A stretch of DNA of 32,000 nt from Candidatus Saccharimonadota bacterium. Lineage in GTDB: Bacteria > Pseudomonadota > Alphaproteobacteria > CAJXXZ01 > 1604HC. Location: positions 270,001-302,000 of the forward strand of contig NZ_CP043315.1 of the NCBI RefSeq assembly GCF_008189285.1, written 5' to 3'. Positions 5,180 through 24,437 of this stretch are shown piece after piece (the stretch's first letter is position 1; the number at the start of each line of letters is the position of its first letter). A program made the translations under genes and the position numbers. The notes under the pieces are model-generated. The model worked only from the letters and a program-made list of their open reading frames with translations. It had not been told where the DNA came from and searched no databases.

Positions 5180-6012
5180 AAAAGGTCATTGATCTAATAA
5201 TCTATACTATAGCTTCATGATTTAATCATCATAACATTTATTGTATAGTTTATTACATAATTGAGTTGTATTACAGAGTTATAAATTACATTGTAAAAAA
5301 TATTTAAGAATATTGTTTTGTTAAATTTGTGTTCGTATTGATAGTGATTTTACAAACAAAAAATCTAAACATTTAAGAGCATTGCTATTAAAATTATTTG
5401 AAAATTGCATAGCAAATTTCTGTTTAATTATATTTATACTGACTATTTATTTAAAAACTCAAAACTGTGTATAAATTCTACTTATTCTGTTGGTATTTGC
5501 TATTTATTGTACATTTAAAACATTATTTATTTAAATTTATTTAAAAATTAAAAAATCATATTTAATTGGCAGTTATTTATAGCATTTGAGTAAATAAATA
5601 TTCTTTTGCATATAAGTTTATCATTTCAGGAAAAATGAAAATGAATTTTAAGTAGATCAAAAGAGAATCAATTAAGAAAGATAAAAATGAATTTTGCAGG
5701 ATTAGTTTGCAGAATTGTTATATAAAATCAAATTAATTGAATGTCACATAAAATCAAAATTGACTGAAATATTGCATAAAATGTATAAAATCATAAATAT
5801 TTCTTGAAAGCATTTTGACGAAAGAATGAAATATTTCTAGAATAAATTAAAAGATGGCTAATAGCAAAAGAAAAAATAACAAGAGTTGTAAATTCAATGA
5901 AATTACCAAATTGTTTTCAACAATATGCAAATTTTTAACAGTATTTGCTTGTAAAATTTAATAAATTGAATGGAAGTTTGTATGAAATGAATTTGTAATT
6001 TTCATAGATTTA

Positions 6013-8303: not shown

Positions 8304-11021
8304 ATGAAATATAAAAATAAATTTTTATTGTCATTAGTAGTGCTATTAAGCGCGGATTGTATGAAAGGTAATCTTGAAAATAATCATATTGCCAGAGATT
8401 TAATGGAACAACTTTCAAAGACACAAGCTATGAATGCAATGAAAGCACATCAAGAAACAATTGATTCTATTCTTTTCATTAACCAAGGAGATTATTACTT
8501 AATTCAAGATGGTCATATGTACAAAGTTGACGATAGTTTGAAAAGTTCTATTTATGCAGATGCTACAGTAGCAAAAATTTCAGATGAAGTAAAAGCAAAA
8601 ATTACTGCAGGAGCAGTGGTTAACAGCGATAAAGAAGTAATTGATTCTGTTTTTGAATTTGTTAACAAAAAATCAACAGATGCTAAAATGAATTTATCTA
8701 ATTTAATGAACACTTTGTTAGAAGATGGGCTTTCTTCTGAAGATGATTTATTTGTTAGAGTTATTTCTGGATCTGAATTAAGCAACAGTGATGCTAATGC
8801 ATCCATTGATAGCTTAAACGATATTGATGAAGAGCATAAAAGTGAATTAAAAACATCTGTGTTGGTATCTGGAAATATTGATTATAAAAATAAGCATGAA
8901 GCATTGATTAGTGCGCAAAAAGAATTAGCACAATTTGCTGAAGACAACAGTGTTGCATTAAAAACTGCAATGAATAAAGCTGAAGCTGCTAAAGAAGAAT
9001 TAATTGAAAATGCAAGCAAAATCAGCGCTACATCTCATGAGATAAAATTAGCAAAACTTTATGCAGAGCAATTGAATATTATGAAAACTTATAAAGAGAA
9101 GATTGAATCTGATCAACGTAAGCTTAATTCTAAAGAAAATTCTGTGTTAGAGCTTAAAAGTGGTTCAGAGCGTGAAGCTGAAGAATTTAATCAAATTATG
9201 AGAAATGCTGTAGAAGCTGTAAGTATGATCAAAGCAATGCATAATGAATTAGATTTCTGGAAAACAAATGTTGGAGGAAGTGGAAGCGATAACCAAACAG
9301 CTAGAATGACTAGTTTTTACAACAAACTAAATGCAATGACAAACTTAATAGAGGTGTCAGGAATAGTTTATGCTAAAAATAATAGTGGTGAGTTAAATAG
9401 TTATGATCAATACAAAACAATGATTGAAGATCAAGACTTTATTAGCAAGATGAGCTCGCTTTCCATTGAAGGAGATAGCAATCCTATTTCAAAAGCTATA
9501 TATAATTTGTTGCAAATGACCAATTCATTAATAAAGTACCATGCTGCTTTCAACAGATCTCAATCTTTAGAATTTTCAGATTCAATAATTGAATTAAGCA
9601 GAGATTATTATAGAACTAATAGCAATGGAGACAAAGAGATTGAAATTGGAACTTTTGAATACATTGGTATCATGAGAGATGCGCAAAATAAAGATTACAC
9701 TTCCCAAGAAAATGATGCAGAGCTTATAGATCATGTAGAAAAAGCAATAAAAGTAGGGGTATCTTACGAAGAATTATTGCCTAGCGATGCTCTTGTTAAA
9801 GTTGATGCTGCATATAGACATATCCTAGATTCTGATAACACAGCAAAAGAAATAGAACTTGATGCAAAATTGATTGAACAATTAATGTTTGATGCAAATC
9901 AAGTTGTTGTAATAATAGATAATGCAGAAGTAATAATTGATTACAGCGATCTAATGATTACAAATGATGAGAAAGAAGAATTTTCGTATTTCCAGTATTC
10001 ATATGAAAGCGATGATGAAAAAGTAGAGCTTGATGAGAAAATTAGAGCAATTTTGATTAAAAAGCTTAAAGAGCATGCTTTAAGATCGACAGAAATCATG
10101 AAAATTGAAGCAAAAGAGTCTTGGGTTTCTATGAATGATACTATGGGAACACTAAATCAAGCTATTAACAATAACCTTGAAAAATCTCAAGATGATGATG
10201 GAAAATATACAAATATAGCCATGTATTACATTGCTGAACTTTCTGGGTTTGATGGTTCTAATTATGAAGAATTAAATAATGCTGTTAAAGATCATTTGAC
10301 AAGTCTTGGCTATGATGGGATAAACAAACCACAAGACATAGGAATCAGATGGAATTTTATACTTGGTGATCTTTACAATGAAGACTTATTGAATGTTTAT
10401 AAAAATGCTGTAAATGTTAAAAAAGCTTTAGCTGCATTAAAAATTGAGAAAGAAAAAGAAGAGCCTAGCGCTGAATTGAAACAAGATATCGAAGGTAAAA
10501 AAATAGAAGCAGAAAAATATAGCAATGCATTGCATGATTTTGTATATACTCCTGAGCCAGGAAATGGAAATGATCTAAATATTCCTGAAATCTTATGGAG
10601 TGGAGAAGGCGCCGCTTCTAGCTCAGTTAGCATATCATCAGGAAATAGAACAAGAGCAGGTTCTGCTAGATCAATATTTGATGAATATGTAGGGTATGGA
10701 AGATTCCAAGAAGGAATTGACAATTCTCTAAAAACATTAACAAATCCATTCGCAGGCGCAGCTTATTCTGCAGAGAAAACTGTACATACAAACTCTTTGG
10801 ATGCTCTTAATGCTGCAATTACAGAATTGGAAGCAAAGTTTAATGAAATAAATATTGATTCTGATGCATACAAATTTGAACTAGAGAAAAGCGCTGAATT
10901 GCATGCAGAAATAGATGTTCTTAATGTTGAAGTTAGTGCAAAATATCAAGATCAAGAAGATAAAGTTGCTGGATTGCAATCAGAATTAGATGCAATTCGT
11001 GAACAAATTAAAAATGCATAA
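8304..11021 (+). CDS. hypothetical large acidic, coiled-coil-rich secreted or surface protein
   Basis: A 905-aa uninterrupted ORF in a very AT-rich background, with GGAGG 4 nt upstream of the ATG. The N-terminus MKYKNKFLLSLVVLLSADC looks like a signal peptide. I recognise no family motif. Confidence 0.8.
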   Translation: MKYKNKFLLSLVVLLSADCMKGNLENNHIARDLMEQLSKTQAMNAMKAHQETIDSILFINQGDYYLIQDGHMYKVDDSLKSSIYADATVAKISDEVKAKITAGAVVNSDKEVIDSVFEFVNKKSTDAKMNLSNLMNTLLEDGLSSEDDLFVRVISGSELSNSDANASIDSLNDIDEEHKSELKTSVLVSGNIDYKNKHEALISAQKELAQFAEDNSVALKTAMNKAEAAKEELIENASKISATSHEIKLAKLYAEQLNIMKTYKEKIESDQRKLNSKENSVLELKSGSEREAEEFNQIMRNAVEAVSMIKAMHNELDFWKTNVGGSGSDNQTARMTSFYNKLNAMTNLIEVSGIVYAKNNSGELNSYDQYKTMIEDQDFISKMSSLSIEGDSNPISKAIYNLLQMTNSLIKYHAAFNRSQSLEFSDSIIELSRDYYRTNSNGDKEIEIGTFEYIGIMRDAQNKDYTSQENDAELIDHVEKAIKVGVSYEELLPSDALVKVDAAYRHILDSDNTAKEIELDAKLIEQLMFDANQVVVIIDNAEVIIDYSDLMITNDEKEEFSYFQYSYESDDEKVELDEKIRAILIKKLKEHALRSTEIMKIEAKESWVSMNDTMGTLNQAINNNLEKSQDDDGKYTNIAMYYIAELSGFDGSNYEELNNAVKDHLTSLGYDGINKPQDIGIRWNFILGDLYNEDLLNVYKNAVNVKKALAALKIEKEKEEPSAELKQDIEGKKIEAEKYSNALHDFVYTPEPGNGNDLNIPEILWSGEGAASSSVSISSGNRTRAGSARSIFDEYVGYGRFQEGIDNSLKTLTNPFAGAAYSAEKTVHTNSLDALNAAITELEAKFNEINIDSDAYKFELEKSAELHAEIDVLNVEVSAKYQDQEDKVAGLQSELDAIREQIKNA

Positions 11022-11173
11022 TTTAGCAATCTAATTGTTTATATTAAGTATTGGTAATATTAATAATGAGCGTTAGAAATCTAACATTTATATAAAATTA
11101 CAAAAACACCTTAAAGAGCTTGTAGAAATGCAGTGCTTATGCAATGAATTGAAAAGCTATAAAGTATTATCAT

Positions 11174-11216
11174 TTTCTTTGCAAGTATTATTTAAAATTA
11201 AATCAAAGGAATGGTA
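11174..11216 (+). promoter_or_regulatory. conserved 5' module TTTCTTTGCAA-N9-AAAATTAA-...AAGGA upstream of the IQ-motif protein gene
   Basis: See the alignment in the findings. The similarity to the 543-aa gene continues into the first 26 nt of coding sequence (ATGAAATATATCT[T/A]TTTAAGCATTG). Confidence 0.4.
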
Positions 11217-14200
11217 ATGAAATATATCTTTTTAAGCATTGTTGTCTTATTAATCTCAAACTCTCATATTGTGGCAGATGAAATAAATGATGATGAAATA
11301 TCACAAAATAAAATTGTAGAAAAAATCTATAAAAGAAAAATAAAACCAACTATTTCTAAAAAGAACAGTATAAAAAAAAGAAAATCAAGAAAATCTAAAC
11401 TTAAAGCCACAAAAAGAAGCAGAATAACTGGATCTAAAAGGCGAAAATTACCCGCAAAAAGAAGAAAGTCCTCTGCATCAAAATTGACCAAAAGATCATC
11501 AAGAAAAAGAGTTAGATTAAGTAGGGCAAAATATCCAATTGCAAAAAAACTTAATAAGATTAACTCTGTAGCTGTAAAGATTTCATATGAAGATATATAT
11601 AAAAATGAAATTAGAAAATTACAAGAAAAAGAAAATGAAATTAGAAATAAATTAATTGCTAGTAAAAATAATCATATGCTAGAAATAAAACTTAACAAAG
11701 AATTGACTAGCCTGCATTTGAAAACGATGCATTACAAATTATTGTTAAACAAACCCAATGATATATCAATGCAAATAAAGCAATTATCAAGCATGCAAAT
11801 GGATATTAGAAACAAATTTGACAAAGAAAAAGATCAAGCACAGAAAGATAAGCTGAGAAAAGAATTGCATGCCATTAGTGTGAATATAAATCATTATAAA
11901 TCACTATTAAATAGAAATAGATCTATGAAATCTGATTCATTATCAAGAAGAGATATGTCCGTAGAAGTTAATTTCAGGCCAAAAATTAACGAACCAAAAA
12001 GCACTGAGGGCGCAACTATATTGATGACAAAAGAACAAACTATATCACGTCCTGAAGAAATTGCAATTATTGCCCCAAAAGATTCTGTTGCATTAATAGA
12101 ATCATCAAGTAAAATTGAAAATCCTGCTAGAGACTCAGTTGTTTTAAAAAATAGCGAGCAAACAATTGTTAATCCAAAGAAATTAGTTGAGCTTGAAAGC
12201 GCATCATCAACAATAACAAATAAAGAAGATAAAAAAGAAGCGATCACCTTAGTGGAAAAAGAAGAGTATATAAGTAGAGATGAGCATAAAAAAAAGACTG
12301 TTGAATTATCTGGACATATGCATGAGATTAAATCAGAACACACAAAGCCTAATTTGATTGAGAAGGGGTCGCAGTTAGCAATTCCTCAATTTAAGGAAGA
12401 GGTAAAACTATTTGCGAATGATAAATCAATTACATCTCCAATAAGGGAAGAGCAGAAAAAAATAATTGAAGAAGAAAAACAACAACAATCAGCAACAAAG
12501 ATTCAAGCTTTATTTAGAGGAAGAAGTGCTAGAAAAGCAACTGAAGTAAAGAAAGTTGCTGAAGCAGAAGAGAAAAAGCTAGAAGAAGCAAGATTGAGTG
12601 AAGAAGAAAATAGAAAATTAATTAAATCTGAAGAGAAAATAGATAGAGAAGAAGGAGAAAAAAAGATTCGACTTTTATTGGAAAAATTAGTTGAAATAAA
12701 AGATATAAGAGCTACAACAGACAAAAGAAAAGAAAGGAATAAAAAATCAGAAGAAGAAAAAGAAACAAGAAAAGAAGTTGAAATAGTAGAGAGAAAGGAA
12801 ATAGAAGAACTAAAAGCTAAAGAAGAAAGAGCAAGAAAAGAAGTAGAAGCAAGATTAGATACAGAAGAAAAAGCAGCAACAAAGATTCAAGCTTTATTTA
12901 GAGGAAGAAGTGTAAGAAAAGCAACTGAAAAAACAACCCCAAAAGATATTGAAAGGAATAGCTCATCTGCCCCTTTAACTCCAAGAAAATTAAGTTTTGA
13001 TTCCTCAGACGATAGATCTTCAAGAGCTGAATCAGTCGATCATACACCTGGGCATGAAGATAAAAGAATATCAAGAGGATCAGATAGATCAACGTTTTCT
13101 TCAGATTCAACTTCTTCAAAAGGTTCAAAAAGATCATTAACAAAAGAGGAAATTGCAAAAAAAAATCAAAGCGCGAAGGTTGAAATAAACAATAATATAG
13201 AAGGGCAAAGAAGAAATGAAGCAATAACAAGAAAAAAGAACAAAGATATAAATAATAGAAAAAAAATAAAAATAAAACAAAACAAAATTAGAGCTAATAA
13301 TAGAATTAAACAAAATAAATTAAGAAAAGAAAAAGATCTGAGATTGTTCGGAAGAAAAATAGCAGAAGAAACTAATAGAAAACAAAAAGAATTAGAGAAA
13401 ATTAGAAAAGATAAACTAGATATTAAGCGGCTCAGTGAAGAAGAAAGTCGCACAAGGTCTGAATTGCAAAAAGAAGAAAGTTCTGGAAGATTAATGATAA
13501 AAGATTCTAAAGATAAAAATACATGGAAAGAAATTGCATTAAGTGAGAGTGATAATAACACTGAAGGACATGAAAATGATGATGAAAGCATGATTTCTGA
13601 AGAAATAACTCAAATTGAAAAAACTCTTGATCAGTTGAATGGAGAAAAGAAATCTATAGAAAATGGCATAAGAGAGTTTAAAAATAAAGTTGTGTTAAAA
13701 AATAAAGAAAAAGCAGAGTTAGCAAAAGATTTAAAAAAATTAAATGAATTGAAGAAAAAATCAGAAGAAAAATCTAATGAAAAAACACTTCCATTTGGAA
13801 GAACAAATCTTCAAAAGCTTAATGAAGCAGTTAAAAAACATGGAGGGTCAAATGCTGTAATTTTAATTGCAAGCATTGGAGAAAAAATTACAAGTTTAGG
13901 AAACGAAATAGTAGAATTAGAAAAAAACAAAAAAAAGCATGAAGAGAAATTAATTGCAGTGGAGAATGAAATTAAATCTAAACAAAAAGAATTGCAAACA
14001 AAGAAAAGCTTGCTTGAAAGAATAAAAAATGCCTTTAAAGCAGCGAGATCAAAAGTTATCCCTAGTAAAAGCAAAAAAAATAACAATCGAAATGCAGGAT
14101 CATCTGTAATTCCTTATTATGATGAAAGTCGTGAGGTATATTTATTGGATCCACAAATAACTCCTTACACATCTGAAAGAAGAAAAAATAATGACACAAA

Positions 14201-14318
14201 ATCTAGATCACCTTCTGGAAGTAGGTCAAATTCATTAAACTCTCCTTCTAAGTCTTCTTCTGCCAAAAATAAAACTCCACCTAAGTCAAAATATGCACAT
14301 ACAATATATTCTTATTAA
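11217..14318 (+). CDS. hypothetical secreted, hyper-charged protein with two IQ motifs
   Basis: A long ORF (1035 aa from the ATG at 11211). I prefer the ATG at 11217 because MKYIFLSIVVLLIS... then aligns with the paralogous MKYIYLSIAALLIS... and sits 6 nt after AAGGA. The order is signal peptide, a K/R/S polybasic tract, coiled-coil-like segments, and IQxxxRGxxxR twice. Confidence 0.85.
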   Translation: MKYIFLSIVVLLISNSHIVADEINDDEISQNKIVEKIYKRKIKPTISKKNSIKKRKSRKSKLKATKRSRITGSKRRKLPAKRRKSSASKLTKRSSRKRVRLSRAKYPIAKKLNKINSVAVKISYEDIYKNEIRKLQEKENEIRNKLIASKNNHMLEIKLNKELTSLHLKTMHYKLLLNKPNDISMQIKQLSSMQMDIRNKFDKEKDQAQKDKLRKELHAISVNINHYKSLLNRNRSMKSDSLSRRDMSVEVNFRPKINEPKSTEGATILMTKEQTISRPEEIAIIAPKDSVALIESSSKIENPARDSVVLKNSEQTIVNPKKLVELESASSTITNKEDKKEAITLVEKEEYISRDEHKKKTVELSGHMHEIKSEHTKPNLIEKGSQLAIPQFKEEVKLFANDKSITSPIREEQKKIIEEEKQQQSATKIQALFRGRSARKATEVKKVAEAEEKKLEEARLSEEENRKLIKSEEKIDREEGEKKIRLLLEKLVEIKDIRATTDKRKERNKKSEEEKETRKEVEIVERKEIEELKAKEERARKEVEARLDTEEKAATKIQALFRGRSVRKATEKTTPKDIERNSSSAPLTPRKLSFDSSDDRSSRAESVDHTPGHEDKRISRGSDRSTFSSDSTSSKGSKRSLTKEEIAKKNQSAKVEINNNIEGQRRNEAITRKKNKDINNRKKIKIKQNKIRANNRIKQNKLRKEKDLRLFGRKIAEETNRKQKELEKIRKDKLDIKRLSEEESRTRSELQKEESSGRLMIKDSKDKNTWKEIALSESDNNTEGHENDDESMISEEITQIEKTLDQLNGEKKSIENGIREFKNKVVLKNKEKAELAKDLKKLNELKKKSEEKSNEKTLPFGRTNLQKLNEAVKKHGGSNAVILIASIGEKITSLGNEIVELEKNKKKHEEKLIAVENEIKSKQKELQTKKSLLERIKNAFKAARSKVIPSKSKKNNNRNAGSSVIPYYDESREVYLLDPQITPYTSERRKNNDTKSRSPSGSRSNSLNSPSKSSSAKNKTPPKSKYAHTIYSY
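12501..12533 (+). other. IQ motif 1 (IQALFRGRSAR) within the 1033-aa protein
   Basis: An exact fit to the IQxxxRGxxxR consensus. The context SATKIQALFRGRSARKATE resembles neuromodulin AATKIQASFRGHITRKK. Confidence 0.7.
12885..12917 (+). other. IQ motif 2 (IQALFRGRSVR) within the 1033-aa protein
   Basis: An exact fit to IQxxxRGxxxR in the context AATKIQALFRGRSVRKATE. The DNA patch 12876..12929 is 52/54 identical to 12492..12545. Confidence 0.7.
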
Positions 14319-14411
14319 CTTGATTAATTATTATCCGTGATGAGGGAGAATAAAGTGAAAATTCCAAGGACAGCTCTTTTGTTTATTAGTTAAGCAAACT
14401 ATAATGTGCGC

Positions 14412-14996
14412 ATGAAGATATTCATAATTTTTGCTTTATGTATGTCTATTTCTGGGAAAAGTCTTTCTCAAGAATCGCATATTGTTTTTCTTGGTAAAAT
14501 TTTAGATTACCATTCGGATCATGATGAAATAAACTTGATTAATCAAAGAAATATTTCTCTGAATAAACTGAGGTTAGATTTTCCGCTTTTTGATTTATTT
14601 ATTTCTCAGAAAAATAAAACTTCTTTTGCAAAATGGTTTTATCATTTTTGCTCTTTGTCTATTATGAATTCGAGTAGAAAAAAACAAATGCAAGAAATTT
14701 ATAGCCTTATTAATATTTCTGTTGATGGATTTATTAATGGGGTCATGCAATTAAACTCTATTGATTGTAGCACTTTGTCAGATAATGCAAAAAATTGGAT
14801 TGATAGAGCGCAATTATGGATTAAAGCTTACAAAAAATTCGAAAAATCATATCAAGATAAATCTGGAAAGTTATATCAAAATAATAATCACGATATAACT
14901 AGAAAAATAAGTGAAAAGTCTTTTAAAAATAAATTTGAACAAAAAACAAATGAAAAGCTTGATGAGAAAAATTCTAAGAAAGTGGATGAAATATGA
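14412..14996 (+). CDS. hypothetical exported or membrane-anchored protein (possible reduced HemX/Mic60-like)
   Basis: The ORF has a hydrophobic N-terminus, MKIFIIFALCMSISGKSLSQ. Its stop overlaps the next gene's start (ATGA). The C-terminal ...LSDNAKNWIDRAQLWIKAYKKFEK resembles the end of mitofilin/HemX-type domains, but the match is weak. I prefer the ATG at 14412 over the track's GTG at 14406. Confidence 0.6.
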   Translation: MKIFIIFALCMSISGKSLSQESHIVFLGKILDYHSDHDEINLINQRNISLNKLRLDFPLFDLFISQKNKTSFAKWFYHFCSLSIMNSSRKKQMQEIYSLINISVDGFINGVMQLNSIDCSTLSDNAKNWIDRAQLWIKAYKKFEKSYQDKSGKLYQNNNHDITRKISEKSFKNKFEQKTNEKLDEKNSKKVDEI

Positions 14997-15733
14997 TTTT
15001 TAAAATAATATCTATAATATTGATTGTAATTACAATTAAAATATTTGATTTTATACCAATTCACATTAAAGTAGGAGATCTGAATTATAAATGCAATTTT
15101 TCTATCATAATTTTATTTGCGATGATGCTTTCTTGGATTATTTATTATTTTTGCAATTTAAAATATTGTATAAAATCCCACTGCAATAAATCTAAGCAAA
15201 GCAAGATGGAAAAACAAGAAATTGAAACAAATAAGAAAATAATTCAACAATCAATTGAAAATGTTTGCAAGATTTGTTTAAGCAATTATAATGATTTAAA
15301 TGGCCTAATAAGCGAAAATGATAAAAATGATAAAATTAATGAAGTTGAAAAAAGTTGCGCTCATAATAGAAGCATTTTAATTGATATGATTGATATGATT
15401 TGCAATGTTAATTTTCATAGTGCGAAAAATCTTGACTTATATATAAACGATAAATTATTTGAATTTATAGAAAAATCATATGAGTATTTAAGAAATAACA
15501 ATTACATTAAAGCGCAGGAAAGTTTAGAAAATTTGTATGATCATGTAAAAATATCGCCAAAAATTCATAATTATAAGTGCATTTATGAGAATTTATATGT
15601 TTGTTATATAGAAAATAAAGAATATGATAAATGTCAAAATATGTTAGATGATTTATATAAACGAAATGCAATTAATAAGGATCAATATGATGAAAAATGC
15701 AGAGGAATACTGAAGTATGGGAAAATTATATAA
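14993..15733 (+). CDS. hypothetical membrane protein, HemY_N-like N-terminus with a helical (TPR-like) C-terminus
   Basis: Two N-terminal hydrophobic helices flank IHIKVGDLNYKCNFS, compared with E. coli HemY VLIQTDNYNIETSV between its two TM helices. The C-terminal half is helical, with TPR-like Y/L/N spacing. Confidence 0.6.
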   Translation: MIFKIISIILIVITIKIFDFIPIHIKVGDLNYKCNFSIIILFAMMLSWIIYYFCNLKYCIKSHCNKSKQSKMEKQEIETNKKIIQQSIENVCKICLSNYNDLNGLISENDKNDKINEVEKSCAHNRSILIDMIDMICNVNFHSAKNLDLYINDKLFEFIEKSYEYLRNNNYIKAQESLENLYDHVKISPKIHNYKCIYENLYVCYIENKEYDKCQNMLDDLYKRNAINKDQYDEKCRGILKYGKII

Positions 15734-15859
15734 TAAGTCTAAATGCTAATCATGCTGTACAAAATATGCGAAATATGAAAAAATAATTTATTAGAAATCT
15801 TGTTATAAGATTTACTTGTAGGCTATTTTGTGTTCTAATTTACTTATTAAGGAGATTTT

Positions 15860-16387
15860 ATGAGTAGATTGCTTATGCCACGTTCTACAGCGCTGTGGTT
15901 ATTAAATAATACTAAATTAACATTGCAACAAATATCCAGTTTCTGCTCAATGTCCATTTTAGATCTAGATGTTATGAAGAGAGGATTTTCCGATTCTGCA
16001 TTACAAGAAAGCGACCCTGTTAGCAGAGGTCAGTTGTTATTGGAAGAAATAGAATTATGCGAAGAAAATCCAAGCAGGAAATTAAGCTTGAATGTTGTAG
16101 TAGAAGTTAAAAGTGAAATTAGGAAAATTCCATATAAATTAAAGAAGCAACTATCTAAATTTATTTCATGGATGCATAGAAATTATCCAGATTTGACAAA
16201 CAAAGAGATTGCAAAATTCTTTGGAGTAACGCAAAAAACTGTAGAAGATGTTGTGGATAATCCTAATTCATTTTTTGAAGCTTCAGACCCAATTTTAAAT
16301 GGAGTGTGTTCGAAAGAACATTTAAATGCTTTTATTGAAAAAGTAGAGCAAAATAGAGAAAAGGCTGCTAAGAAAAGTAAAAAATAA
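15860..16387 (+). CDS. DUF1013-family protein (alphaproteobacteria-restricted; annotated in some genomes as a cell-cycle regulator)
   Basis: MSRLLMPRSTALWLLNNTKLTLQQISSFC...DPVSRGQLLLEEIELCEENPSRKL...ISWMHRNYPDLTNKEIAKFFGVTQKTVE...DPILNGVC follows the conserved DUF1013 pattern (LMPKATAVWL..NT.L.F.QIA.FC, DP...GQLT.EEI..CE). AAGGAG lies 6 nt upstream of the ATG. Confidence 0.8.
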   Translation: MSRLLMPRSTALWLLNNTKLTLQQISSFCSMSILDLDVMKRGFSDSALQESDPVSRGQLLLEEIELCEENPSRKLSLNVVVEVKSEIRKIPYKLKKQLSKFISWMHRNYPDLTNKEIAKFFGVTQKTVEDVVDNPNSFFEASDPILNGVCSKEHLNAFIEKVEQNREKAAKKSKK

Positions 16388-16775
16388 TTAAATTATTGCA
16401 TTATTTAAAAGTAATTCTTAGAAATTATATTTCTTCTTGGATTTTCCTTCTTTTTATTCAATTTAGATATTTGAATTTCTTAAAATAACATTCATTTTAT
16501 TAATTATAAATCAAGAAATATAATTATATATGCACTAGAAGTATAACCAATGATTTCAGAATTAATGAAAAAATTATTTATCAATATTGCGCGATACACT
16601 ATTTAGATACAGCTGTTCTCTATTAGAGGTTGTATTTATTATATAAATTATTTTCATAAAAATTTACATTCAATGCTGCTTGCTAGCTCTATATTGCATA
16701 TTTATTTTTATATGAAGCTGATATAATCTAGGGAAATAGTGAAAAATACAAAAACCATGAAAGGTATAAATCAAA

Positions 16776-17300
16776 ATGCATGATTTTATATTGTTAACAA
16801 GTTCTTTTCTTGTAGGATCTATCCCATTTGGAAGGATTTGGTCTTTTTTGTTAGGGAAAAAAGATTTGAGAAATTGTGGATCAGGAAACATAGGAACAAC
16901 CAATGCTTTTAGGGTTAATGGAAAAGTTGTTGGAATTCTAACTGCTTTGTTTGATGTAGGGAAAGGATTTGCATGTTTGTTATTTCCTAATCCTGCTTTA
17001 TTTGGATCATGGATAGTAATTGGTCATATTTATGCACCATGGTCAGGTGGAAAAGGAGTCGCTGCATTTTTCGGAATATGTTTAGCAATTCTAAAATTTT
17101 ACGCACTAATACCTATGATTACATGGATCGCATTGGTTTATTGCAAAATTAGACCAACTTATGCTAGTTATGTAGCATTATTCATTATGTGTATTATTGC
17201 ATTTATTAAAGTTCAAGAGATTTTTATGTTAATAGCTTTGTTAAGTGTGGCAATTATATACAAACATATTGTTTCTGACCTATCCAAGAGATGCAGATGA
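16776..17300 (+). CDS. plsY: glycerol-3-phosphate acyltransferase PlsY
   Basis: A polytopic membrane ORF carrying the PlsY signature LVGSIPFGRIW...GSGNIGTTNAFRVNGK. Confidence 0.85.
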   Translation: MHDFILLTSSFLVGSIPFGRIWSFLLGKKDLRNCGSGNIGTTNAFRVNGKVVGILTALFDVGKGFACLLFPNPALFGSWIVIGHIYAPWSGGKGVAAFFGICLAILKFYALIPMITWIALVYCKIRPTYASYVALFIMCIIAFIKVQEIFMLIALLSVAIIYKHIVSDLSKRCR

Positions 17301-18406
17301 TAAAGTATGAACAGAATAATAATAAATTCAATAAAATTCTAACCGAAGAAGAAAAAATAGATTTTCTAAGAGTTATTAGGACGAAAAATATTGGCCCAAT
17401 TAGCTTTTTTCACTTGTTAAATACTCATAAAACTATAGATAAGGTAATTAAATTTTTAGAAACAAAACTTGAAGTTAAATCTAAAACATATGCTGTAGAA
17501 GAAATGAGAAAAATTCGTAATTATGGAGCTGATATTATATGTTTTTCAGAGCCAAATTACCCTATTTTATTACGTGAAATTAGAGATTGCCCTCCCGTTA
17601 TTTGCGCAAAAGGTGATTTGGGCATATTAAGTAGAGAGAAGCTTTTTGCAATTGCTGGGTCTAGAACATGCTCTGTACAAAGTCAAGTTATGACAAAAAG
17701 AATTACATCTGAATTAGGAGAAAATGGATACACTATAGTTTCAGGATTAGCTCGTGGAATTGATACATGCGCTCATCAGAATAGTTTAAATACTGGAACA
17801 ATTGCAGTTCTTGCAAATGGGATAGATCATGTTTACCCATCAGAAAATAAATCATTATACGAAAAAATTGCAATAAAAGGCGTTATATTATCAGAAGTAG
17901 AATTTGGAACAAAGCCATCTGCGCATTTATTCCCAAATCGAAATCGAATTATTGCTGGAATGAGTTTGGGAGTGTTAATTGCAGAAGCTAGTGTAAAATC
18001 TGGATCTCTAATTACTTCTCAATGTGCTCTAGAAAATGGTCGAGATGTTTTTGCTATACCTGGATGCCCGCTTGATCCTCGTTCGCGTGGTGCAAATAAA
18101 TTGATTAAACAAGGAGCTGCTTTAGTAGAATTTATTCACGATATTACAAATGCATTTGAAGATTTTTCTCTCAAAGAGCCAGTTGAGAGCTATATTCCAG
18201 AAATAAAATACGATTTCTCTGAGAAGCAACTATCTGATTATAGCGAGAAATTATTAGATATGATTGGATTTTTCCCAATTTCGATAGAATTACTTATTAA
18301 TAAAATGGATATTCCGATCAGTACGGTTAGAGCGCTGCTTGCTCAGCTTGAAATCGAAGGGAAAATATCGCATTCTTGGGGAAATAAAGTTTCATTGCGA
18401 AGATAA
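17291..18406 (+). CDS. dprA: DNA-processing protein DprA/Smf
   Basis: The DprA core motifs are present: GSRTCS...SGLARGIDTCAH...GTIAVLANGIDHVYPSEN...FPNRNRIIAGMS...AEASVKSGSLITSQCALENGRDVFAIPG. It overlaps plsY by 10 nt. Confidence 0.9.
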   Translation: MQMIKYEQNNNKFNKILTEEEKIDFLRVIRTKNIGPISFFHLLNTHKTIDKVIKFLETKLEVKSKTYAVEEMRKIRNYGADIICFSEPNYPILLREIRDCPPVICAKGDLGILSREKLFAIAGSRTCSVQSQVMTKRITSELGENGYTIVSGLARGIDTCAHQNSLNTGTIAVLANGIDHVYPSENKSLYEKIAIKGVILSEVEFGTKPSAHLFPNRNRIIAGMSLGVLIAEASVKSGSLITSQCALENGRDVFAIPGCPLDPRSRGANKLIKQGAALVEFIHDITNAFEDFSLKEPVESYIPEIKYDFSEKQLSDYSEKLLDMIGFFPISIELLINKMDIPISTVRALLAQLEIEGKISHSWGNKVSLRR

Positions 18407-18582
18407 TGTAATTCGCAAATAAATTTTCTTTACAAGTGATTTATGAAAATAAATATTAACATGGAAAATTCATTGTATAGTATAAATTTGCATAAATAAA
18501 TATTTCTATGAAAATGATTGGTGAAAATATCAATGTAAAAAATAGCATTGTTTTATGTTGCTTGCTTTTAGCGTTTAGTATT

Positions 18583-18656
18583 TATATTTCTATCGATTTC
18601 ATTTGGCTGCAGCTTTATTTTATATTTCTATCGATTTCATTTGAATGCAGTTTTAT
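18583..18656. repeat. tandem duplication of a ~36-38-bp unit (TATATTTCTATCGATTTCATTTGRMTGCAGYTTTAT)
   Basis: The copies at 18583..18618 and 18621..18656 differ at 3 positions. They lie in the convergent intergenic region between dprA and the 543-aa gene. Confidence 0.8.
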
Positions 18657-18781
18657 GTTAGATAAATATTTCTGTTAAAGATTTATGATGAGCTTAATCT
18701 CTCAATCTACTTCCATTTTTACAATGTTTTTTAAATTATTTCTTTTTTCTAAGCTCATTTCACGCTTCAGTAAGTTTATTA

Positions 18782-20413
18782 CTAGATGTCATTTTCATCA
18801 GAATCTTTATAATTACCAGACATCATACGTTGCCTAATCAGTGCCTTTCTCATTTTTTCTTCAAATTCGCTTTTTGTTTCTTTCGCTTTCTTTAATTTGA
18901 AGTTTCCTTTTCTTATTTCTGCGAACAAATCCGCTCTGCTATCTTGATCTTCACTTAAAGGCATTGAAGCTTTAGACAAGCCTTTTATTCCTTCTTTAGG
19001 AAGTGCTGGGGCATCAGGAATTGCTCCAGTTTTAGGCGCAGGAGGAGGTGTTGGAATTGCTCCAGTTTCAGATGCAGGAGTTTCGTCAAAAGCTATTTCT
19101 CCCATTGATAATTTATCAGCTCTTTTTTCTGCAGCAAGATCAAGAGCTTTTCTTTTTTCTCTGCCTTTTTCTTCAAGCTCTATCAGAAAACTCGCTTTAG
19201 TTGAATTTCCAGATGTTGCTTTAGACAAGCCTTTTATCCCTTCTTTAGGAAGTGCTGGGGCATCAGGAATTGCTCCAGTTTTAGGCGCAGGAGGAGGTGT
19301 TGGAATTGCTCCAGTTTTAGGCACAAGAGGAGGTGTTGGAATTGCTCCAGTTTCAGATGCAGGAGTTTCGTCAAAAGCTATTTCCCCCATTGATAATTTA
19401 TCAGCTCTTTTTTCTGCAGCAAGATCAAGAGCTTTTCTTTTTTCTCTGCCTTTTTCTTCAAGCTCTATCAGAAAACTCGCTTTAGTTGAATTTCCAGATG
19501 TTGCTTTAGACAAGCCTTTTATCCCTTCTTTAGGAAGTGCTGGGGCATCAGGAATTGCTCCAGTTTCAGATACAGAAGTTTGAAGTGCTGCATTAGTTGA
19601 ATTGTCTCCTGCTATTTTAGGAATTGAAAAATAATCATCATCTACATTAGTTGAATTGTCTGCTGTTTTTTTAGGTGAATTCAACGAAGGTGCATTTATG
19701 CTTCCTTTTGCTGATCTTTCAATTTCGTTCATCTCTTGAGAAGCATTTTGTTCGATTGCACTTCTCTTGCTATGTTCTTCTATTAAAAATGCTGAGGAAT
19801 TTTCTAGAATATTTTTAGCTTTATTAGTTGCAAATTGAGTGCTTTTAATTTTTGATTCAACAACAAATAATCTATTTTCCAATTCCACTTTTTCTTTTGC
19901 TGTTAATTTTGTGTTGTTTGTCAATTTTGTTGTTAACGCCATTTTCTCTGCATTCATGCTTCTTAGATCAGTCATATTTTTGTCATAATCTTTAGATAAT
20001 TGGTCATAATAAGAAACTGTTGCGCTTTTTGTTTTTGCAGATGATGCAGATGATCTTGAAGTTGGTCTGAAGCTTCTTCTTGCAATTCGTCTTCCAGATC
20101 TAGTTGCGCTTCTTCTAAATACAGGCTTGCGAGATCTTGAAATTCTTCTTTTAGCAGCTCTTCTTGATTTGGAAGTAACTTTCCTTCTTTTAGCAGCGGA
20201 TTTTCTTCTTGATTTAGCAGCGGATTTTCTTCTTGATTTGGAAGTAACTTTCTTTCTAGATTTTCTTTTTGTTTTTTTAAACGATTTATCATCGCTTTTT
20301 TTTATTTCAGTGTGAACAGGCTTTCCCTCTACAATACTCATGTTAACTTCTTTTGCATCAGCATATGTATTAGAAATCAATAAAGCGGCAATGCTTAAAT
20401 AGATATATTTCAT
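18782..20413 (-). CDS. hypothetical secreted protein: signal peptide, polybasic tract, coiled coil, proline-rich tandem repeats, C-terminal WH2/connector/acidic (WCA-like) tail
   Basis: A 543-aa ORF with AAGGAG 7 nt upstream of the ATG. The N-terminus MKYIYLSIAALLISNTYA|DA looks like a Sec signal peptide. The C-terminus ADLFAEIRKGNFKLKKAKETKSEFEEKMRKALIRQRMMSGNYKDSDENDI carries the WCA-like tail. Confidence 0.9.
   Translation of the reverse strand: MKYIYLSIAALLISNTYADAKEVNMSIVEGKPVHTEIKKSDDKSFKKTKRKSRKKVTSKSRRKSAAKSRRKSAAKRRKVTSKSRRAAKRRISRSRKPVFRRSATRSGRRIARRSFRPTSRSSASSAKTKSATVSYYDQLSKDYDKNMTDLRSMNAEKMALTTKLTNNTKLTAKEKVELENRLFVVESKIKSTQFATNKAKNILENSSAFLIEEHSKRSAIEQNASQEMNEIERSAKGSINAPSLNSPKKTADNSTNVDDDYFSIPKIAGDNSTNAALQTSVSETGAIPDAPALPKEGIKGLSKATSGNSTKASFLIELEEKGREKRKALDLAAEKRADKLSMGEIAFDETPASETGAIPTPPLVPKTGAIPTPPPAPKTGAIPDAPALPKEGIKGLSKATSGNSTKASFLIELEEKGREKRKALDLAAEKRADKLSMGEIAFDETPASETGAIPTPPPAPKTGAIPDAPALPKEGIKGLSKASMPLSEDQDSRADLFAEIRKGNFKLKKAKETKSEFEEKMRKALIRQRMMSGNYKDSDENDI
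18887..18934 (-). other. candidate WH2 (G-actin-binding) motif ADLFAEIRKGNFKLKK
   Basis: It matches the WH2 pattern LLxxIxxGxxLKK(V/A) with one extra residue before LKK. Compare WAVE (RSVLLEAIRKGIQLRKV) and N-WASP (ALLDQIRQGIQLKSV). Confidence 0.65.
18968..19567 (-). repeat. near-identical in-frame tandem repeats (249 bp, 285 bp, and a partial third of ~60 bp) encoding proline-rich and helical modules
   Basis: Units begin at 18971, 19220 and 19505. Units 1 and 2 differ by 2 substitutions plus a 36-bp indel that adds one more TGAIPTPPxxPK sub-repeat. Confidence 0.9.
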
Positions 20414-20459
20414 TACTATTCTCCTTTTATTTTAATTTTAAATATGATTTGCAAAGAAA
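20414..20459 (-). promoter_or_regulatory. conserved 5' module (reverse complement: TTTCTTTGCAA-N9-AAAATTAA-...AAGGAG) upstream of the 543-aa gene
   Basis: This is the third occurrence of the motif at the same distance from the start codon. Confidence 0.4.
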
Positions 20460-20676
20460 TTGCTAATTGATAGGAGAAATTGCTTATACTTAACTTATCA
20501 TGATTTAATTCTACATAAATTTATTTATCAAACATCGCTTTATTTCAATGATTTGTTTGTTTTAAAAAGAATTTAGAAAGAAAAGAGCAAATGATTTTTG
20601 AAGAATATTTGAAGTGATTTGCTTGTAAAATTTACAGAATAATGAGATCTTTAACACAAAGGAACTCAATTTTCTC

Positions 20677-21498
20677 ATGACATTTCTAGAAATTATCGAT
20701 AGATTAGAGAAGTTTTGGATAAAATTTGGTTGTAAAATTATTCATCCTGCTGATATGACAGTTGGAGCTGCAACTATGCATCCACACTTTATTTTAAATG
20801 CATCTAAAAAACATAGGTTGGCTTATATGCAACCATGCAGAAGGCCGCAAGATAGTAGGCCAGATAGCAAAAATAGACTTTATAAGCATCATCAATTCCA
20901 AGTTACAATTAATCCTGTAATGGAAAATATTCAAGATGTATTTTTGGACAGTTTGCTTGATATTGGATTTGATTTAGATGTTCATGAAATTAAATTTCTT
21001 GCTGGAAACTGGCAAAGTCCAAGTTTGGGAGCATTTGGAGTAGGTAGTGAAGTTTGGGCAAACAATAGCGAAATTGCGCAATTTACTTATTTTCAACAAG
21101 TGGGTGGAAAGCCATTAAGTGAACAAGTTGTTGAATTGACTTATGGACTTGAAAGAATCGCAATGAGTTTGCAGAATATTGAAAATTGGCGAGATATAAT
21201 ATGGCAAGATGGAGTTAAATATGATGATATAGATGATTCAGAGTTTAGCATTGCCTCTAATAATAATTATAATGTTGAGTATCTTAAAAATACTTTTGAT
21301 ATGCATTTAAATGAATCAATTCATTTATTGAGTTTGAATTTGCGATACCCAGCATACGAGGAATTTTTGAGAGCTAGTCACGCATTTAATACATTAGAAT
21401 CCAGGCAAGCATTCAGTCCTACACAACGCGTTGATGAGTTAAATAAATTGAGAAGTGTGGGGCAGAAATGCGCAAGCCAAGAAAGCAATAAATCATGA
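20677..21498 (+). CDS. glyQ: glycine--tRNA ligase alpha subunit
   Basis: FLEIIDRLEKFW...GC.I..P.DM.VGA.T.HP...YMQPCRRPQDSR...NRLYKHHQFQV...LTYGLERIAM is a typical GlyQ sequence. Confidence 0.95.
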   Translation: MTFLEIIDRLEKFWIKFGCKIIHPADMTVGAATMHPHFILNASKKHRLAYMQPCRRPQDSRPDSKNRLYKHHQFQVTINPVMENIQDVFLDSLLDIGFDLDVHEIKFLAGNWQSPSLGAFGVGSEVWANNSEIAQFTYFQQVGGKPLSEQVVELTYGLERIAMSLQNIENWRDIIWQDGVKYDDIDDSEFSIASNNNYNVEYLKNTFDMHLNESIHLLSLNLRYPAYEEFLRASHAFNTLESRQAFSPTQRVDELNKLRSVGQKCASQESNKS

Positions 21499-23495
21499 AT
21501 AAATTTTTATTTGAAATTATGCACGAGAGCATTCCTAGTGAAATAATAGAGACTAGTAAGAAAAGATGGATTGATGCAATTAAAAGTGAATTTGAAGACC
21601 ATCAAATCAGAAATGTTTCTCTTGATATTTATTTGACTAATACAAGAGTTATAACTTCTGTAAATGATTTGCCAAGCGAGATTTGCAAAGATGATGAAAT
21701 TATCAAGGGTCCGAAATCTAGCATCGCTGATGAAATATTGGAGAAATTTCTTAAAAAACATGGAAAAAATAAATCAGATGCATATGTGGAAAATGGATTC
21801 TATTATGTAAAAAACATTTATGCTTCAAAAAACATTGAAGATATGATTCCTGAGATTTGTATAAATATCATGAAAAAAATGAAATGGAACAAAGTAATGT
21901 TCTGGAGCAAGAAAATGGGATGGATCAGGCCAATTAGGAGATTGGTATCAATTTTTAATGGAAGTCCAATGCTTTGGCATATGGATGCTATTGATTTATC
22001 TACTTCATCTTCTTTTATATATGATTTAATTAAAAGAGAAGAGTTTATTGCGTCTAATTTTGAAGAATATGAAAATTGCCTAGAAAACAAAAATATATAT
22101 TTAGAAGAAAGCAAAAAATTGGATATTTTGATTATGGAGATTGAAAATTCTTTTAGAAAACTTAAATCAACTAATGAGAATGATAAAAACACAAAATTGA
22201 TTATTAATAATGAGAATAATAACAAAAATGATCAATTTCTTGATAATAATTCCGATAATAACTTTGAAAACAATAAAAAGTTATGCTGTATTAATCAAAA
22301 AGATATTTTAAGAATTTGCTCTCAAATGGAATCTGTAAATGTATATTGCGCAGAGATTAATGACACTTTTGAAATACCTAATGAAATCAAGCAGGCTATT
22401 CTAAAAGAGCAGCAACATATTGGAATTTTTCATGGAAATATTTTGAAATATTTATTTGTATTTTCTGATTACGCATTGAAGAGCAGTGATTTGCTGTTAA
22501 GTCAAACTAAAAGAACTGTATTGTCGAAATTTAATGATGCATATTTCTTTTGGACAAGAGATATGGCATGCAATGAAGAGTATTATTCATCAAAATTGCA
22601 ATCAACTTTGTTTTATAAAGATTTAGGAAGCTTGTATCAAAAGTCAGAAAGAATTAAAAAAGTTGCAGAGAGATTATGTCCTAATAATGATAATTTAATA
22701 AGAGAAATTGGGCTTATTCAATTTGATTTATGCATGCAAACTGTAGATGAAATGACAGAATTGCAAGGATTGCTTTCTTATTTTTATGCAAAACGAAATA
22801 ACGAAAATGAAAATGTATGTAATATTTTGTATAATCAATATGTAAATAATATTTCTACAAAAGATGATTTGTATTTATCTTTATTGTACAATTTAGATAG
22901 CGCTCTTGCATTTATTGGAAAAGGGATGACGCCTAGTGGATCAGCAGATCCTTTGGCCATTAGAAGAAAATGCTTGCAAATTATTGATTGTATTATTAAA
23001 TTAAGTGAAAAAGGAATTTCTGTAAATTTAAATGAATTGATCGAGAATTTCAAATTGAATTTTGACAACCAGGGAATTTCTTTGGATTTATCTGGATTTT
23101 CTACATATTTCCAGAAGAGATGTGATTATGTTTTAAATAAAAAATATGGAATATTGTCTAAAATGAATAAAGAAAAAGACATAATAGATGCAAAGAAAAA
23201 GCTTGATAAATTATCTAGTTTTGCAGAATTAGATAAAATTGTTGAAGTGTATAACAGATTGAATAAGCTAGATTACGACAATGCAATTCACAGTCAAAAT
23301 TCCGATGAAACTGAAAATCAATATAAAGTTTTGATGGCTCTTATTGGCGAGGAAAATGATTTGAACAACTTGCTTAATATAAGTTATGAAGTAGAGAAGA
23401 TTTTTGACAAAGTATTTCTTGAAGATAATTTACATATAAAAGGCATGCTGTGCAAAATAAAGGAGAAATTTGAGCAATTTGCTGATTTTAAATAA
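21495..23495 (+). CDS. glyS: glycine--tRNA ligase beta subunit
   Basis: A 666-aa ORF starting in an ATGA overlap with glyQ. It carries the conserved GlyS motif SGSADPLAIRRK (compare DPFALRR). It contains an Asn-rich low-complexity insert. Confidence 0.9.
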   Translation: MNKFLFEIMHESIPSEIIETSKKRWIDAIKSEFEDHQIRNVSLDIYLTNTRVITSVNDLPSEICKDDEIIKGPKSSIADEILEKFLKKHGKNKSDAYVENGFYYVKNIYASKNIEDMIPEICINIMKKMKWNKVMFWSKKMGWIRPIRRLVSIFNGSPMLWHMDAIDLSTSSSFIYDLIKREEFIASNFEEYENCLENKNIYLEESKKLDILIMEIENSFRKLKSTNENDKNTKLIINNENNNKNDQFLDNNSDNNFENNKKLCCINQKDILRICSQMESVNVYCAEINDTFEIPNEIKQAILKEQQHIGIFHGNILKYLFVFSDYALKSSDLLLSQTKRTVLSKFNDAYFFWTRDMACNEEYYSSKLQSTLFYKDLGSLYQKSERIKKVAERLCPNNDNLIREIGLIQFDLCMQTVDEMTELQGLLSYFYAKRNNENENVCNILYNQYVNNISTKDDLYLSLLYNLDSALAFIGKGMTPSGSADPLAIRRKCLQIIDCIIKLSEKGISVNLNELIENFKLNFDNQGISLDLSGFSTYFQKRCDYVLNKKYGILSKMNKEKDIIDAKKKLDKLSSFAELDKIVEVYNRLNKLDYDNAIHSQNSDETENQYKVLMALIGEENDLNNLLNISYEVEKIFDKVFLEDNLHIKGMLCKIKEKFEQFADFK

Positions 23496-23543
23496 TGCAA
23501 AATCAAAAACAATAAGTAATATGGAAGGCATGGAATTATATTT

Positions 23544-24437
23544 ATGAATAATTTTAATAATGAATTGGTTATAGTGGATGGATTCAGCTTGTTATTTAGG
23601 AATTTTTTCGCTATGCAAAATTTATATAATATTGACGGGCTTCCTATAGGTGGAGTTTCTGGATTTGTTAGAACTTTATTTAAAGTTGTTGATAATTTTA
23701 ATCCTCAATACTGCGCTATTGCATTAGATAGTGGAAAGCCAACTTGGAGACATAAATTATACCCTAAATATAAATCTAATAGAAAATCAACTCCTGAAGA
23801 TCTTGTTCCTCAGTTTCAAATTATGTTTGAGGCTTGTGATGCATTTGGAATTTCCGCCTTTAAGGGAGGAGAATGTGAGGCTGATGACTGGATAGCATCT
23901 ATAGTAAATAAGTATAAAAATACTTGTTCAAAAGTATATGTTTGTTCTAGTGATAAAGATTTGATGCAATTGGTTGGTGGAAATGTATATTTTATAGATC
24001 CATTTAAATTAATGATTATGCATGAGCATGATGTAGTTCAGAAAATGGGAGTGTCACCTTTGCAAATTCCTGATCTTTTTGGATTGATTGGAGATGCGAG
24101 TGATTGCATTCCTGGAGTTCCGAGCATTGGTCCGAAAACTGCATCAAATTGGATTAATGCATTTGAGAATATTGAAAATATATTTGAAAATAAAGATAAA
24201 TTAAACCCAAAATCAAGAAGAGGTAAATTTATTGAATTTTATGATCAAGCTATACTATCAAGAACATTAGCTCAATTAAAGCATGAATTAACTTTGCCTG
24301 AGATTTCTTCATTAAGCTATGGATCTGAAGAAGAAATTATACATGAATTTGTGCATAAATATAAAATGAGCAAACATATTAGAAAATACCCTAAATCTAT
24401 AACAACAAATAAGCAATCTTTTGATTTTATATATTGA
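23544..24437 (+). CDS. 5'-3' exonuclease / flap endonuclease (Pol I N-terminal-domain homologue, no polymerase domain)
   Basis: LVIVDGFSLLFRNFFA...KPTWRHKLYPKYKSNR...EADDWIASI...SSDKDLMQLV...GDASDCIPGVPSIGPKTA matches the PIN-like and H3TH motifs of the 5'-nuclease family. The ORF stops after 297 aa. Confidence 0.85.
   Translation: MNNFNNELVIVDGFSLLFRNFFAMQNLYNIDGLPIGGVSGFVRTLFKVVDNFNPQYCAIALDSGKPTWRHKLYPKYKSNRKSTPEDLVPQFQIMFEACDAFGISAFKGGECEADDWIASIVNKYKNTCSKVYVCSSDKDLMQLVGGNVYFIDPFKLMIMHEHDVVQKMGVSPLQIPDLFGLIGDASDCIPGVPSIGPKTASNWINAFENIENIFENKDKLNPKSRRGKFIEFYDQAILSRTLAQLKHELTLPEISSLSYGSEEEIIHEFVHKYKMSKHIRKYPKSITTNKQSFDFIY

Follow-up and report, generated by a model that had tools for sequence, protein, structure and literature searches.

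Recently duplicated proline-rich repeats in the gene for a predicted exported WH2 protein of the diplonemid endosymbiont Candidatus Cytomitobacter indipagum

A recently amplified tandem array in a WH2 gene

The window analyzed here is a 32,000-nt stretch of contig NZ_CP043315.1 (positions 270,001 to 302,000), and our subject is a gene with internal tandem repeats at positions 18782-20413 of this window, on the minus strand. This coding sequence of 543 amino acids (aa) plus stop is the sole long open reading frame (ORF) spanning the repeats. Its product was a 100% match to FZC35_01160 (QEK37988.1 / WP_148980835.1), carried on a 628,024-bp contig of Ca. Cytomitobacter indipagum, a Holosporaceae endosymbiont of the diplonemid Diplonema aggregatum, and automatically named 'WH2 domain-containing protein' in NCBI and UniRef. 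We slightly favor the view that the repeats are recent in-frame tandem duplications in a gene whose product is an exported, host-actin-binding effector of this cytosolic endosymbiont; the functional steps of this view are what we infer. The gene is not mentioned in searchable papers, and none of them ties WH2 to Cytomitobacter or Holospora.

The array at 18968-19567 is made of two full units, of 249 and 285 nt, and a third, partial copy of 65 nt. An earlier note had described near-identical 249/285-bp tandem repeats, and both Tandem Repeats Finder (TRF) and MAFFT recovered them, with coordinates shifted by 2-3 nt. TRF reported a period of 285 nt at 19017-19566 (1.9 copies, 98% matches, score 1079) and a nested 36-nt period at 19266-19365. 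A separate repeat search aligned 19017-19293 to 19302-19578 with 97% identity and found a 76-nt segment in three copies starting at 18969, 19218, and 19503. The MAFFT alignment placed the unit boundaries at 18968-19216 (249 nt) and 19217-19501 (285 nt). As claimed in the note, these units differ by two substitutions (18989 T/C and 19108 T/C) and one 36-nt (12-codon) indel, to which a boundary base should be added. The third copy is indeed identical at first and then diverging, but the identical stretch is 65 nt rather than ~57 nt long: positions 19502-19566 match the 285-nt unit, and the similarity decays beyond.

Both internal substitutions are synonymous (Gly GGA/GGG), and all array lengths are multiples of 3 (83, 95, and 12 codons). 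The DNA of the three DAPALPK sub-repeats (TGAIPDAPALPK) is 100% identical, as is that of the two TPPPAPK sub-repeats (TGAIPTPPPAPK), while the TPPLVPK sub-repeat differs from TPPPAPK at 2 nt. This repeat identity far exceeds chance. Since the units are near-identical and their differences are only synonymous, they point to very recent duplication or gene conversion, in line with the recent expansion or concerted evolution proposed earlier. Moreover, because units of 249-285 nt are ~99% identical and in frame, unequal recombination or slippage could alter the copy number and leave the frame intact. Length variation is therefore plausible and mechanistically expected for this gene, known here from one sequence; the comparison of repeat number with related genomes found no orthologue in the fetched loci of three sister genomes.

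Organization of the repeats in the protein

The coding strand of the array is the minus strand, the units lie in frame in ORF 18782-20413, and the array corresponds to aa 283-482, with the protein order P1 - H - P3 - H - P2 - EGIKGLSKA. Here, P denotes 12-aa TGAIPxxPxxPK motifs, six in total, which were predicted by AlphaFold2 (AF2) to be disordered, and H is a 58-aa block present in two identical copies. The proline-rich peptides quoted in the earlier note were accurate, as judged from translation of the minus-strand ORF, and its proposal of one helical block per unit agrees with the AF2 model, in which each copy of H forms one predicted 32-residue helix (aa 310-341 and 405-436; predicted local distance difference test [pLDDT] 74-84).

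First in the protein is the partial repeat copy (19502-19567, minus strand; aa 283-304), encoding ETGAIPDAPALPK and EGIKGLSKA. It is followed by the 285-nt unit (19217-19501, minus strand), in which the remaining 49 aa of helical block 1 (TSGNSTKASFLIELEEKGREKRKALDLAAEKRADKLSMGEIAFDETPAS) precede TPPLVPK, TPPPAPK, DAPALPK, and EGIKGLSKA. In the 249-nt unit (18968-19216, minus strand), the remaining 49 aa of helical block 2, identical to those of block 1, precede TPPPAPK, DAPALPK, and EGIKGLSKA. Duplication of a unit would thus add two or three proline motifs and one helix per step.

We considered whether the helical block of each repeat could be a degenerate WH2, or the repeat a whole module of proline-rich, WH2, connector, and acidic parts, and rejected both ideas: there was no Pfam match at E = 10, and local alignment scores did not exceed the shuffle means. 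Membership among formins also found no basis, since Pfam Drf_FH1 scored 25.2 bits against a cut-off of 40 and no FH2 was detected.

The WH2 motif and its relatives

The WH2 motif (18872-18958, minus strand; aa 486-514, ..DSRADLFAEIRKGNFKLKKAKE..) was recognized by Pfam PF02205, by a profile search against PDB, and by an AF2 helix. With the C-terminal 69 aa as a query, PF02205 scored 23.6 bits against a cut-off of 23.1 (E = 3.9e-5), which is marginal. The per-model probability of the match was ~1e-8 to 1e-9, as derived from E = 6.6e-4 and 3.9e-5 over 24,736 models. A PDB search with the single C-terminal sequence returned noise only, and the profile built from three sequences, the WH2 block and the Cardinium units described below, matched N-WASP (3m3n_W, E = 7.7e-6), WAVE2 (2a40_C), and Cobl (4jhd_C). 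The layout is that of a WH2, with a short helix followed by an LKKV-type motif (ADLFAEIRKG-NFK-LKKA; AF2 helix 489-501). At the sequence level, the presence of a real WH2 motif can be considered established, and the proline-rich tract directly upstream of a WH2, noted earlier, is thus a genuine combination. Only one WH2 was found, in contrast to the two or more of tandem-WH2 nucleators (VopL/VopF, Spire, Cobl, TARP-like).

An exhaustive phmmer search of 1.84 billion representative proteins returned only two non-self matches. The sole match over the WH2 was AWN81445.1 of Ca. Cardinium hertigii (E = 3e-8), which covers query aa 453-542. Its ~182-aa unit, which holds polyproline and a WH2, is present in three near-identical tandem copies, and the protein terminates in a canonical C helix and an acidic ..NNEWDD tail (EEDNDNDDGTNNEWDD). 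AWN81445.1 is itself a full WCA-like candidate (WH2, connector helix, acidic tail) that the literature touches on only in passing; Cardinium WH2 proteins figure there only as candidate host-interaction factors (PMC3486910, PMC5698495). The other match, A0A674PE76 of Takifugu rubripes, contains dozens of 12-aa TGSIPTPPPEPD repeats, 9/12 identical to TGAIPTPPPAPK and of equal period, aligned to query aa 351-413; this likeness is probably compositional convergence. The word-indexed protein search found only the protein itself, whose cluster has one member from one contig. Two metagenome scans revealed no orthologues, nor did two scans of a genome-contig collection, from which the source genome seems to be masked or missing and in which the glyQ peptide patterns lacked conservation. 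NCBIfam gave no match, and the exhaustive phmmer search gave no RickA-like match.

Downstream of the WH2, a predicted C-terminal helix (18821-18874, minus strand; aa 514-531, KSEFEEKMRKALIRQRMM; AF2 pLDDT 73-76) occupies the place of the C (connector) helix of WASP-type proteins and contains LIRQR. Part of it could be aligned with the C region of the Cardinium protein (BLASTP, MAFFT). Its hydrophobic moment is 0.19, a value equalled or exceeded by 70% of shuffles. The protein ends in an acidic tail (18785-18817, minus strand; aa 533-543, GNYKDSDENDI) with four acidic residues and a net charge of -3. Since the whole protein has no tryptophan (count 0), the canonical WCA acidic-tail signature is missing.

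This C-terminus could be read as that of a nucleation-promoting factor of the WCA type, in which the WH2 (V), helix 514-531 (C), and tail GNYKDSDENDI (A) activate host Arp2/3, as in RickA, ActA, and the WASP family, with the proline repeats as the proline-rich domain of WASP/WAVE. The order of the proline-rich region, WH2, helix, and acidic tail at the extreme C-terminus is that of V-C-A, and this segment aligns (BLASTP, MAFFT) to a Cardinium protein with a canonical C helix and the ..EEDNDNDDGTNNEWDD tail. On the other hand, the tail has only four acidic residues, tryptophan is missing, and the hydrophobic moment of the helix is not above the shuffled controls. Euglenozoa keep Arp2/3, with WASH as the only WASP-family activator there, and the Leishmania WASH A domains are without any hydrophobic residue (PMC3298513); a Trp-less tail may therefore suffice in Euglenozoa, and the missing tryptophan weakens the Arp2/3 interpretation but does no more. 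On balance we consider this interpretation unlikely.

A sequestering or tethering protein would instead bind monomers or filament ends and not promote assembly, anchoring the symbiont to the cytoskeleton or damping actin dynamics. Single WH2 or thymosin-like motifs can sequester monomers, and a single WH2 is what was found here. Unoccupied WH2 domains also cap and tether barbed ends (PMC5753033), and the proline motifs are weak as profilin candidates. An elaborate proline array that was recently amplified and lies just before the WH2, in contrast, is typical of assembly factors. The sequence itself does not separate sequestration from assembly, and we regard a purely sequestering role as rather improbable.

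The N-terminal half and the shared cassette

The protein probably begins with a Sec-type signal peptide (20360-20413, minus strand; aa 1-18, MKYIYLSIAALLISNTYA, followed by D after the putative cleavage site), judged from sequence rather than by a predictor. The n-region MK is followed by a 13-14-residue hydrophobic core and by T-Y-A at positions -3..-1; AF2 predicted a helix at aa 5-22. Next comes a basic tract (20030-20305, minus strand; aa 37-128) with 42 K/R versus 2 D/E and a net charge of +40, made of old 24-nt (8-aa) KSRRKSAA-type repeats (TRF 20160-20263, period 24; repeat families D5 and D6). A helical hairpin (19703-20023, minus strand; aa 131-237) with helices 131-166 and 172-237 was modeled from a single sequence with pLDDT 83-98 and had no Pfam match. 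The linker between the hairpin and the array (19568-19702, minus strand; aa 238-282) holds an older, diverged 18-aa duplication (..ADNSTNV.. / ..GDNSTNA.., 65-88% identity, repeat family D3), which is related to SGNSTKA, the beginning of the repeat helix. In the whole-protein AF2 model, the mean pLDDT was 59.8, and most of the chain was of low confidence or disordered. The Sec leader, the basic tract, the Trp-less tail, the orphan status of the gene, and the paralogue described below add to what the earlier note had recognized.

A second gene in the window (11217-14318, plus strand) encodes a 1033-aa protein with a leader and basic tract, then coiled-coil regions and two IQ motifs (IQALFRGRSAR and IQALFRGRSVR), which were found with a regular expression for the IQ consensus and by Pfam IQ (33.7 bits against a cut-off of 20.3). 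Its true start is probably ATG 11217 and not 11211. The first ~110 residues are common to the IQ-motif and WH2 proteins and comprise the leader MKYI(Y/F)LSI..LLISN and the basic tract (36% identity over 112 aa, E = 6e-8, BLASTP of the N-termini). Similarity extends to the DNA: a shared 5' cassette of ~52 nt upstream sequence plus the first 15 codons (20369-20468, minus strand) is ~85% identical to 11165-11261 (plus strand) and ends abruptly ~52 nt upstream of the ATG. The 29-nt pattern TTTCTTTGCAARTNNTATTTAAAATTAAA from the cassette had 2 matches in the window versus 0 expected. A profile search with the shared N-terminal module scored no further family members.

The two genes share the cassette, leader, and polycationic tract, yet they bear different eukaryote-type motifs, which argues that the shared N-terminal module delivers or retains host-directed cargo by exporting it or holding it at the cell. 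A bolder variant, speculative and quite unlikely in our estimate, would be a family of a few host-directed effectors, of native codon usage and without recent transfer, in which one cassette carries grafted eukaryote-type motifs (WH2 with proline repeats in one member, IQ in the other). The WH2 member would be a Trp-less WCA-like factor tuned to euglenozoan Arp2/3/WASH, driving actin-based positioning (e.g., near mitochondria) or partitioning, with the repeat number as a rapid tuning knob.

The same leader also admits a bacterial envelope protein that is not host-directed, for example, a periplasm-spanning TonB/TolA-like linker whose lysine-rich helix resembles WH2 by chance. Consistent with this are the Sec leader in combination with no outer-membrane translocation domain, the proline-rich and K/E/A-rich helix composition, the below-cut-off WH2 score in the full-length scan, and the occurrence of an orphan gene in a fast-evolving genome. 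However, the per-model probability of the WH2 match is very low, the profile search matched solved WH2-actin complexes, and the paralogue with the same leader bears IQ motifs. No TonB_C, TolA, or other envelope domain was found, and the neighbors are dprA and glyQS, with no tol/ton context. An envelope function is thus very unlikely.

The adjacent ORF 8304-11021 (plus strand) adjoins the IQ-motif gene and encodes 905 aa with a signal-peptide-like N-terminus (MKYKNKFLLSLVVLLSADC..). It had no Pfam or NCBIfam match and no homologue in the fetched sister loci and may be another lineage-specific exported protein.

Possible mode of action

Cytomitobacter lives free in the host cytoplasm, with no host membrane around it (PMC5845003), so the bacterial surface is directly exposed to the host cytoplasm. 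A reduced type II secretion system/type IV pili apparatus is present in the genome, whose authors speculated on effectors targeting cytoskeletal proteins for positioning (10.1101/719211). In the scheme we favor, the protein would be exported by Sec and then released or retained on the bacterial surface by its polycationic tract; the reduced type II secretion system/type IV pili could serve as a secretion route. The WH2 motif would bind host G-actin, and the disordered proline motifs would form a multivalent platform whose most likely ligand is profilin-actin, SH3- or WW-type proteins being further possibilities; the repeat helices would be spacers. Clustered on the surface, the proline-rich domain (PRD) and WH2 could supply filament barbed ends with monomers and keep the filaments tethered, as shown for the PRD-WH2 region of the WASP family, and the terminal helix with the acidic tail may make weak contact with Arp2/3. 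Actin would thereby be assembled or tethered locally, and the symbiont positioned, moved, or partitioned.

Several points weigh against this scheme. The proline motifs contain no FPPPP/EVH1 motif ((F/L/W)PPPP as a regular expression) and no class I/II SH3 consensus, and the longest proline run in the protein is 3. The recruitment of Ena/VASP or SH3 proteins suggested in the earlier note thus finds no support in the motifs; they are unlikely to recruit Ena/VASP and are only putative, weak profilin ligands. The repeated helical block belongs to no detectable family, and its likeness to the WH2 block is not significant. On the full-length protein, PF02205 scored 19.7 bits, which is under the 23.1 cut-off. 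A Sec leader alone brings a protein only to the periplasm, and no autotransporter or anchor domain or defined outer-membrane secretion signal was found with Pfam and NCBIfam. The gene is an orphan, with no homologue in the fetched loci of three sister genomes; conservation therefore gives its function no support, and the protein is dispensable for the genus. On the host side, actin, profilin, formin, and Arp2/3 all go unmentioned in the diplonemid proteomics paper, and the data found on actin regulators are from kinetoplastids only.

A collapsed or expanded repeat in the assembly is highly improbable, for although the Illumina 2 x 125 nt reads are shorter than the 249-285-nt units and the gene occurs in one assembly only, the copies are told apart by two substitutions and a 36-nt indel with the frame intact, and the genome was closed with Unicycler from Nanopore and 3423x HiSeq reads (10.1101/719211), so that the repeat number has probably been resolved correctly.

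Genomic context

The WH2 gene is preceded by a Shine-Dalgarno sequence AAGGAG (20421-20426, minus strand), 7 nt 5' of the ATG at 20413; this site, read from the sequence, is a strong ribosome-binding site. The promoter scan gave 13 promoter-like sites versus 7.8 expected and was uninformative. The terminator scan predicted no intrinsic terminator, including in the convergent spacer between the stops of dprA and the WH2 gene. This spacer contains a 38-nt tandem repeat (18581-18660, 2.1 copies, 90% matches).

The GC content of the WH2 gene at the three codon positions (GC1/2/3) is 0.42/0.47/0.18. Its GC3 of 0.176 is like that of neighboring genes, so there is no sign of a recent foreign origin, and it is the second codon positions that raise the GC content. 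These values give no support to a recent horizontal transfer from a eukaryote.

The WH2 gene (minus strand) is flanked by dprA and then glyQS. The three sister genomes, reached via DprA (71%, 69%, and 67% identity), share the gene order Exo<-GlyS<-GlyQ<-364aa<-152aa diverging from TrcR->PlsY->DprA->TopA; there, topA follows dprA, and glyQS is divergent and lies upstream of trcR. Relative to this arrangement, window positions 14406-24437 are rearranged. Given this rearranged dprA/glyQS order, and since tblastn against the fetched sister loci found no homologue, the WH2 gene is an orphan located at a lineage-specific rearrangement junction. Within the rearranged region, ORF 14993-15733 (246 aa) corresponds to a membrane protein that is 364-397 aa long in relatives, but the match is confined to the N-terminal ~235 residues of the latter. 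No remnant of the rest of this gene was found in the window, including near the WH2 gene.

Elsewhere in the window, an (AGATTTT)x39 microsatellite (4906-5180, 99% matches) lies in a region of 19% GC with no ORF of 60 aa or more. The two short, very basic ORFs 5' of it presumably resemble ribosomal proteins.

Significance and comparison with known actin effectors

Genome papers on diplonemid endosymbionts and other Holosporaceae call the mode of interaction with the host cell unknown. The WH2 gene offers a concrete, testable candidate: a predicted exported protein with a WH2 and a freshly amplified proline array, encoded by a bacterium in direct surface contact with the host cytoplasm. This gene and the Cardinium protein illustrate how endosymbionts have repeatedly built actin-binding proteins via tandem amplification of short modules, and the leader/basic-tract cassette common to the IQ-motif gene provides a handle for listing effectors in these 0.6-Mb genomes. 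The significance is bounded by the occurrence of the orphan in one species, by the label 'WH2 domain-containing' already present in databases, and by the inferential character of all functional steps.

By its features, the protein falls outside the canonical WCA factors, RickA, BimA, tandem-WH2 nucleators, formins, and EVH1 ligands. It is, as predicted from motif content and layout, a new, independently evolved member of the known bacterial class of proline-rich/WH2 actin effectors. The analogy to repeat-bearing bacterial actin effectors drawn in the earlier note is apt, as the cases of ActA (PMC2121076) and BimA (PMC11499645) illustrate, and BimA, ActA, or the PRD-WH2 region of WASP would provide the best resemblance.

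BimA of Burkholderia likewise has a signal peptide, a direct repeat of the IPxPPPxP type (NIPVPPPMPGGGA in BimA versus TGAIPTPPPAPK here), and a WH2-type motif. The BimA PDASX repeats vary from 2 to 7 between strains and are additive in their effect on actin polymerization (PMC11499645). However, BimA belongs to the trimeric autotransporters and is anchored in the membrane by its C-terminus, whereas the Cytomitobacter protein ends in WH2, helix, and acidic tail, with no YadA-like C-terminal anchor or translocator in Pfam or NCBIfam. The order of motifs also differs, and there is no sequence homology.

In ActA of Listeria, short proline-rich repeats are interdigitated with longer repeats, as here; each proline repeat adds ~2-3 um/min to the motility rate, and the long repeats have an independent effect (PMC2121076). 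The proline repeats of ActA are FPPPP EVH1 ligands, which the Cytomitobacter protein does not contain, and the two are not homologous. ActA also differs in its C-terminal transmembrane anchor, Gram-positive wall, and N-terminal location of the Arp2/3-activating region.

The Cardinium WH2 protein (AWN81445.1; CAHE_0010 in strain cEper1) is likewise an endosymbiont protein, and its near-identical tandem repeats are units of polyproline plus WH2. Only ~68 residues about the WH2 are similar. In the Cardinium protein, the WH2 is part of the repeat and occurs three times, and the tail contains tryptophan, whereas here the WH2 is single and the repeats comprise proline motifs and a helix. Unlike the Cytomitobacter protein, that of Cardinium has neither a Sec leader nor a basic tract.

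RickA, WASP, and WAVE share with the Cytomitobacter protein the succession of a proline-rich region, WH2, helix (here a predicted one), and acidic C-terminus, and WAVE also shares a basic region and an N-terminal helical domain. The N-terminal domains of RickA and the WASP family have no homology to this protein, whose acidic tail is without tryptophan and whose Sec signal peptide has no counterpart in RickA (10.1101/2023.02.26.530123). The PRD and WH2 of WAVE1 and N-WASP act as a surface polymerase that is independent of the C and A regions and tethers filaments (PMC5753033), and the PRD-WH2 part of the Cytomitobacter protein may act in this way.

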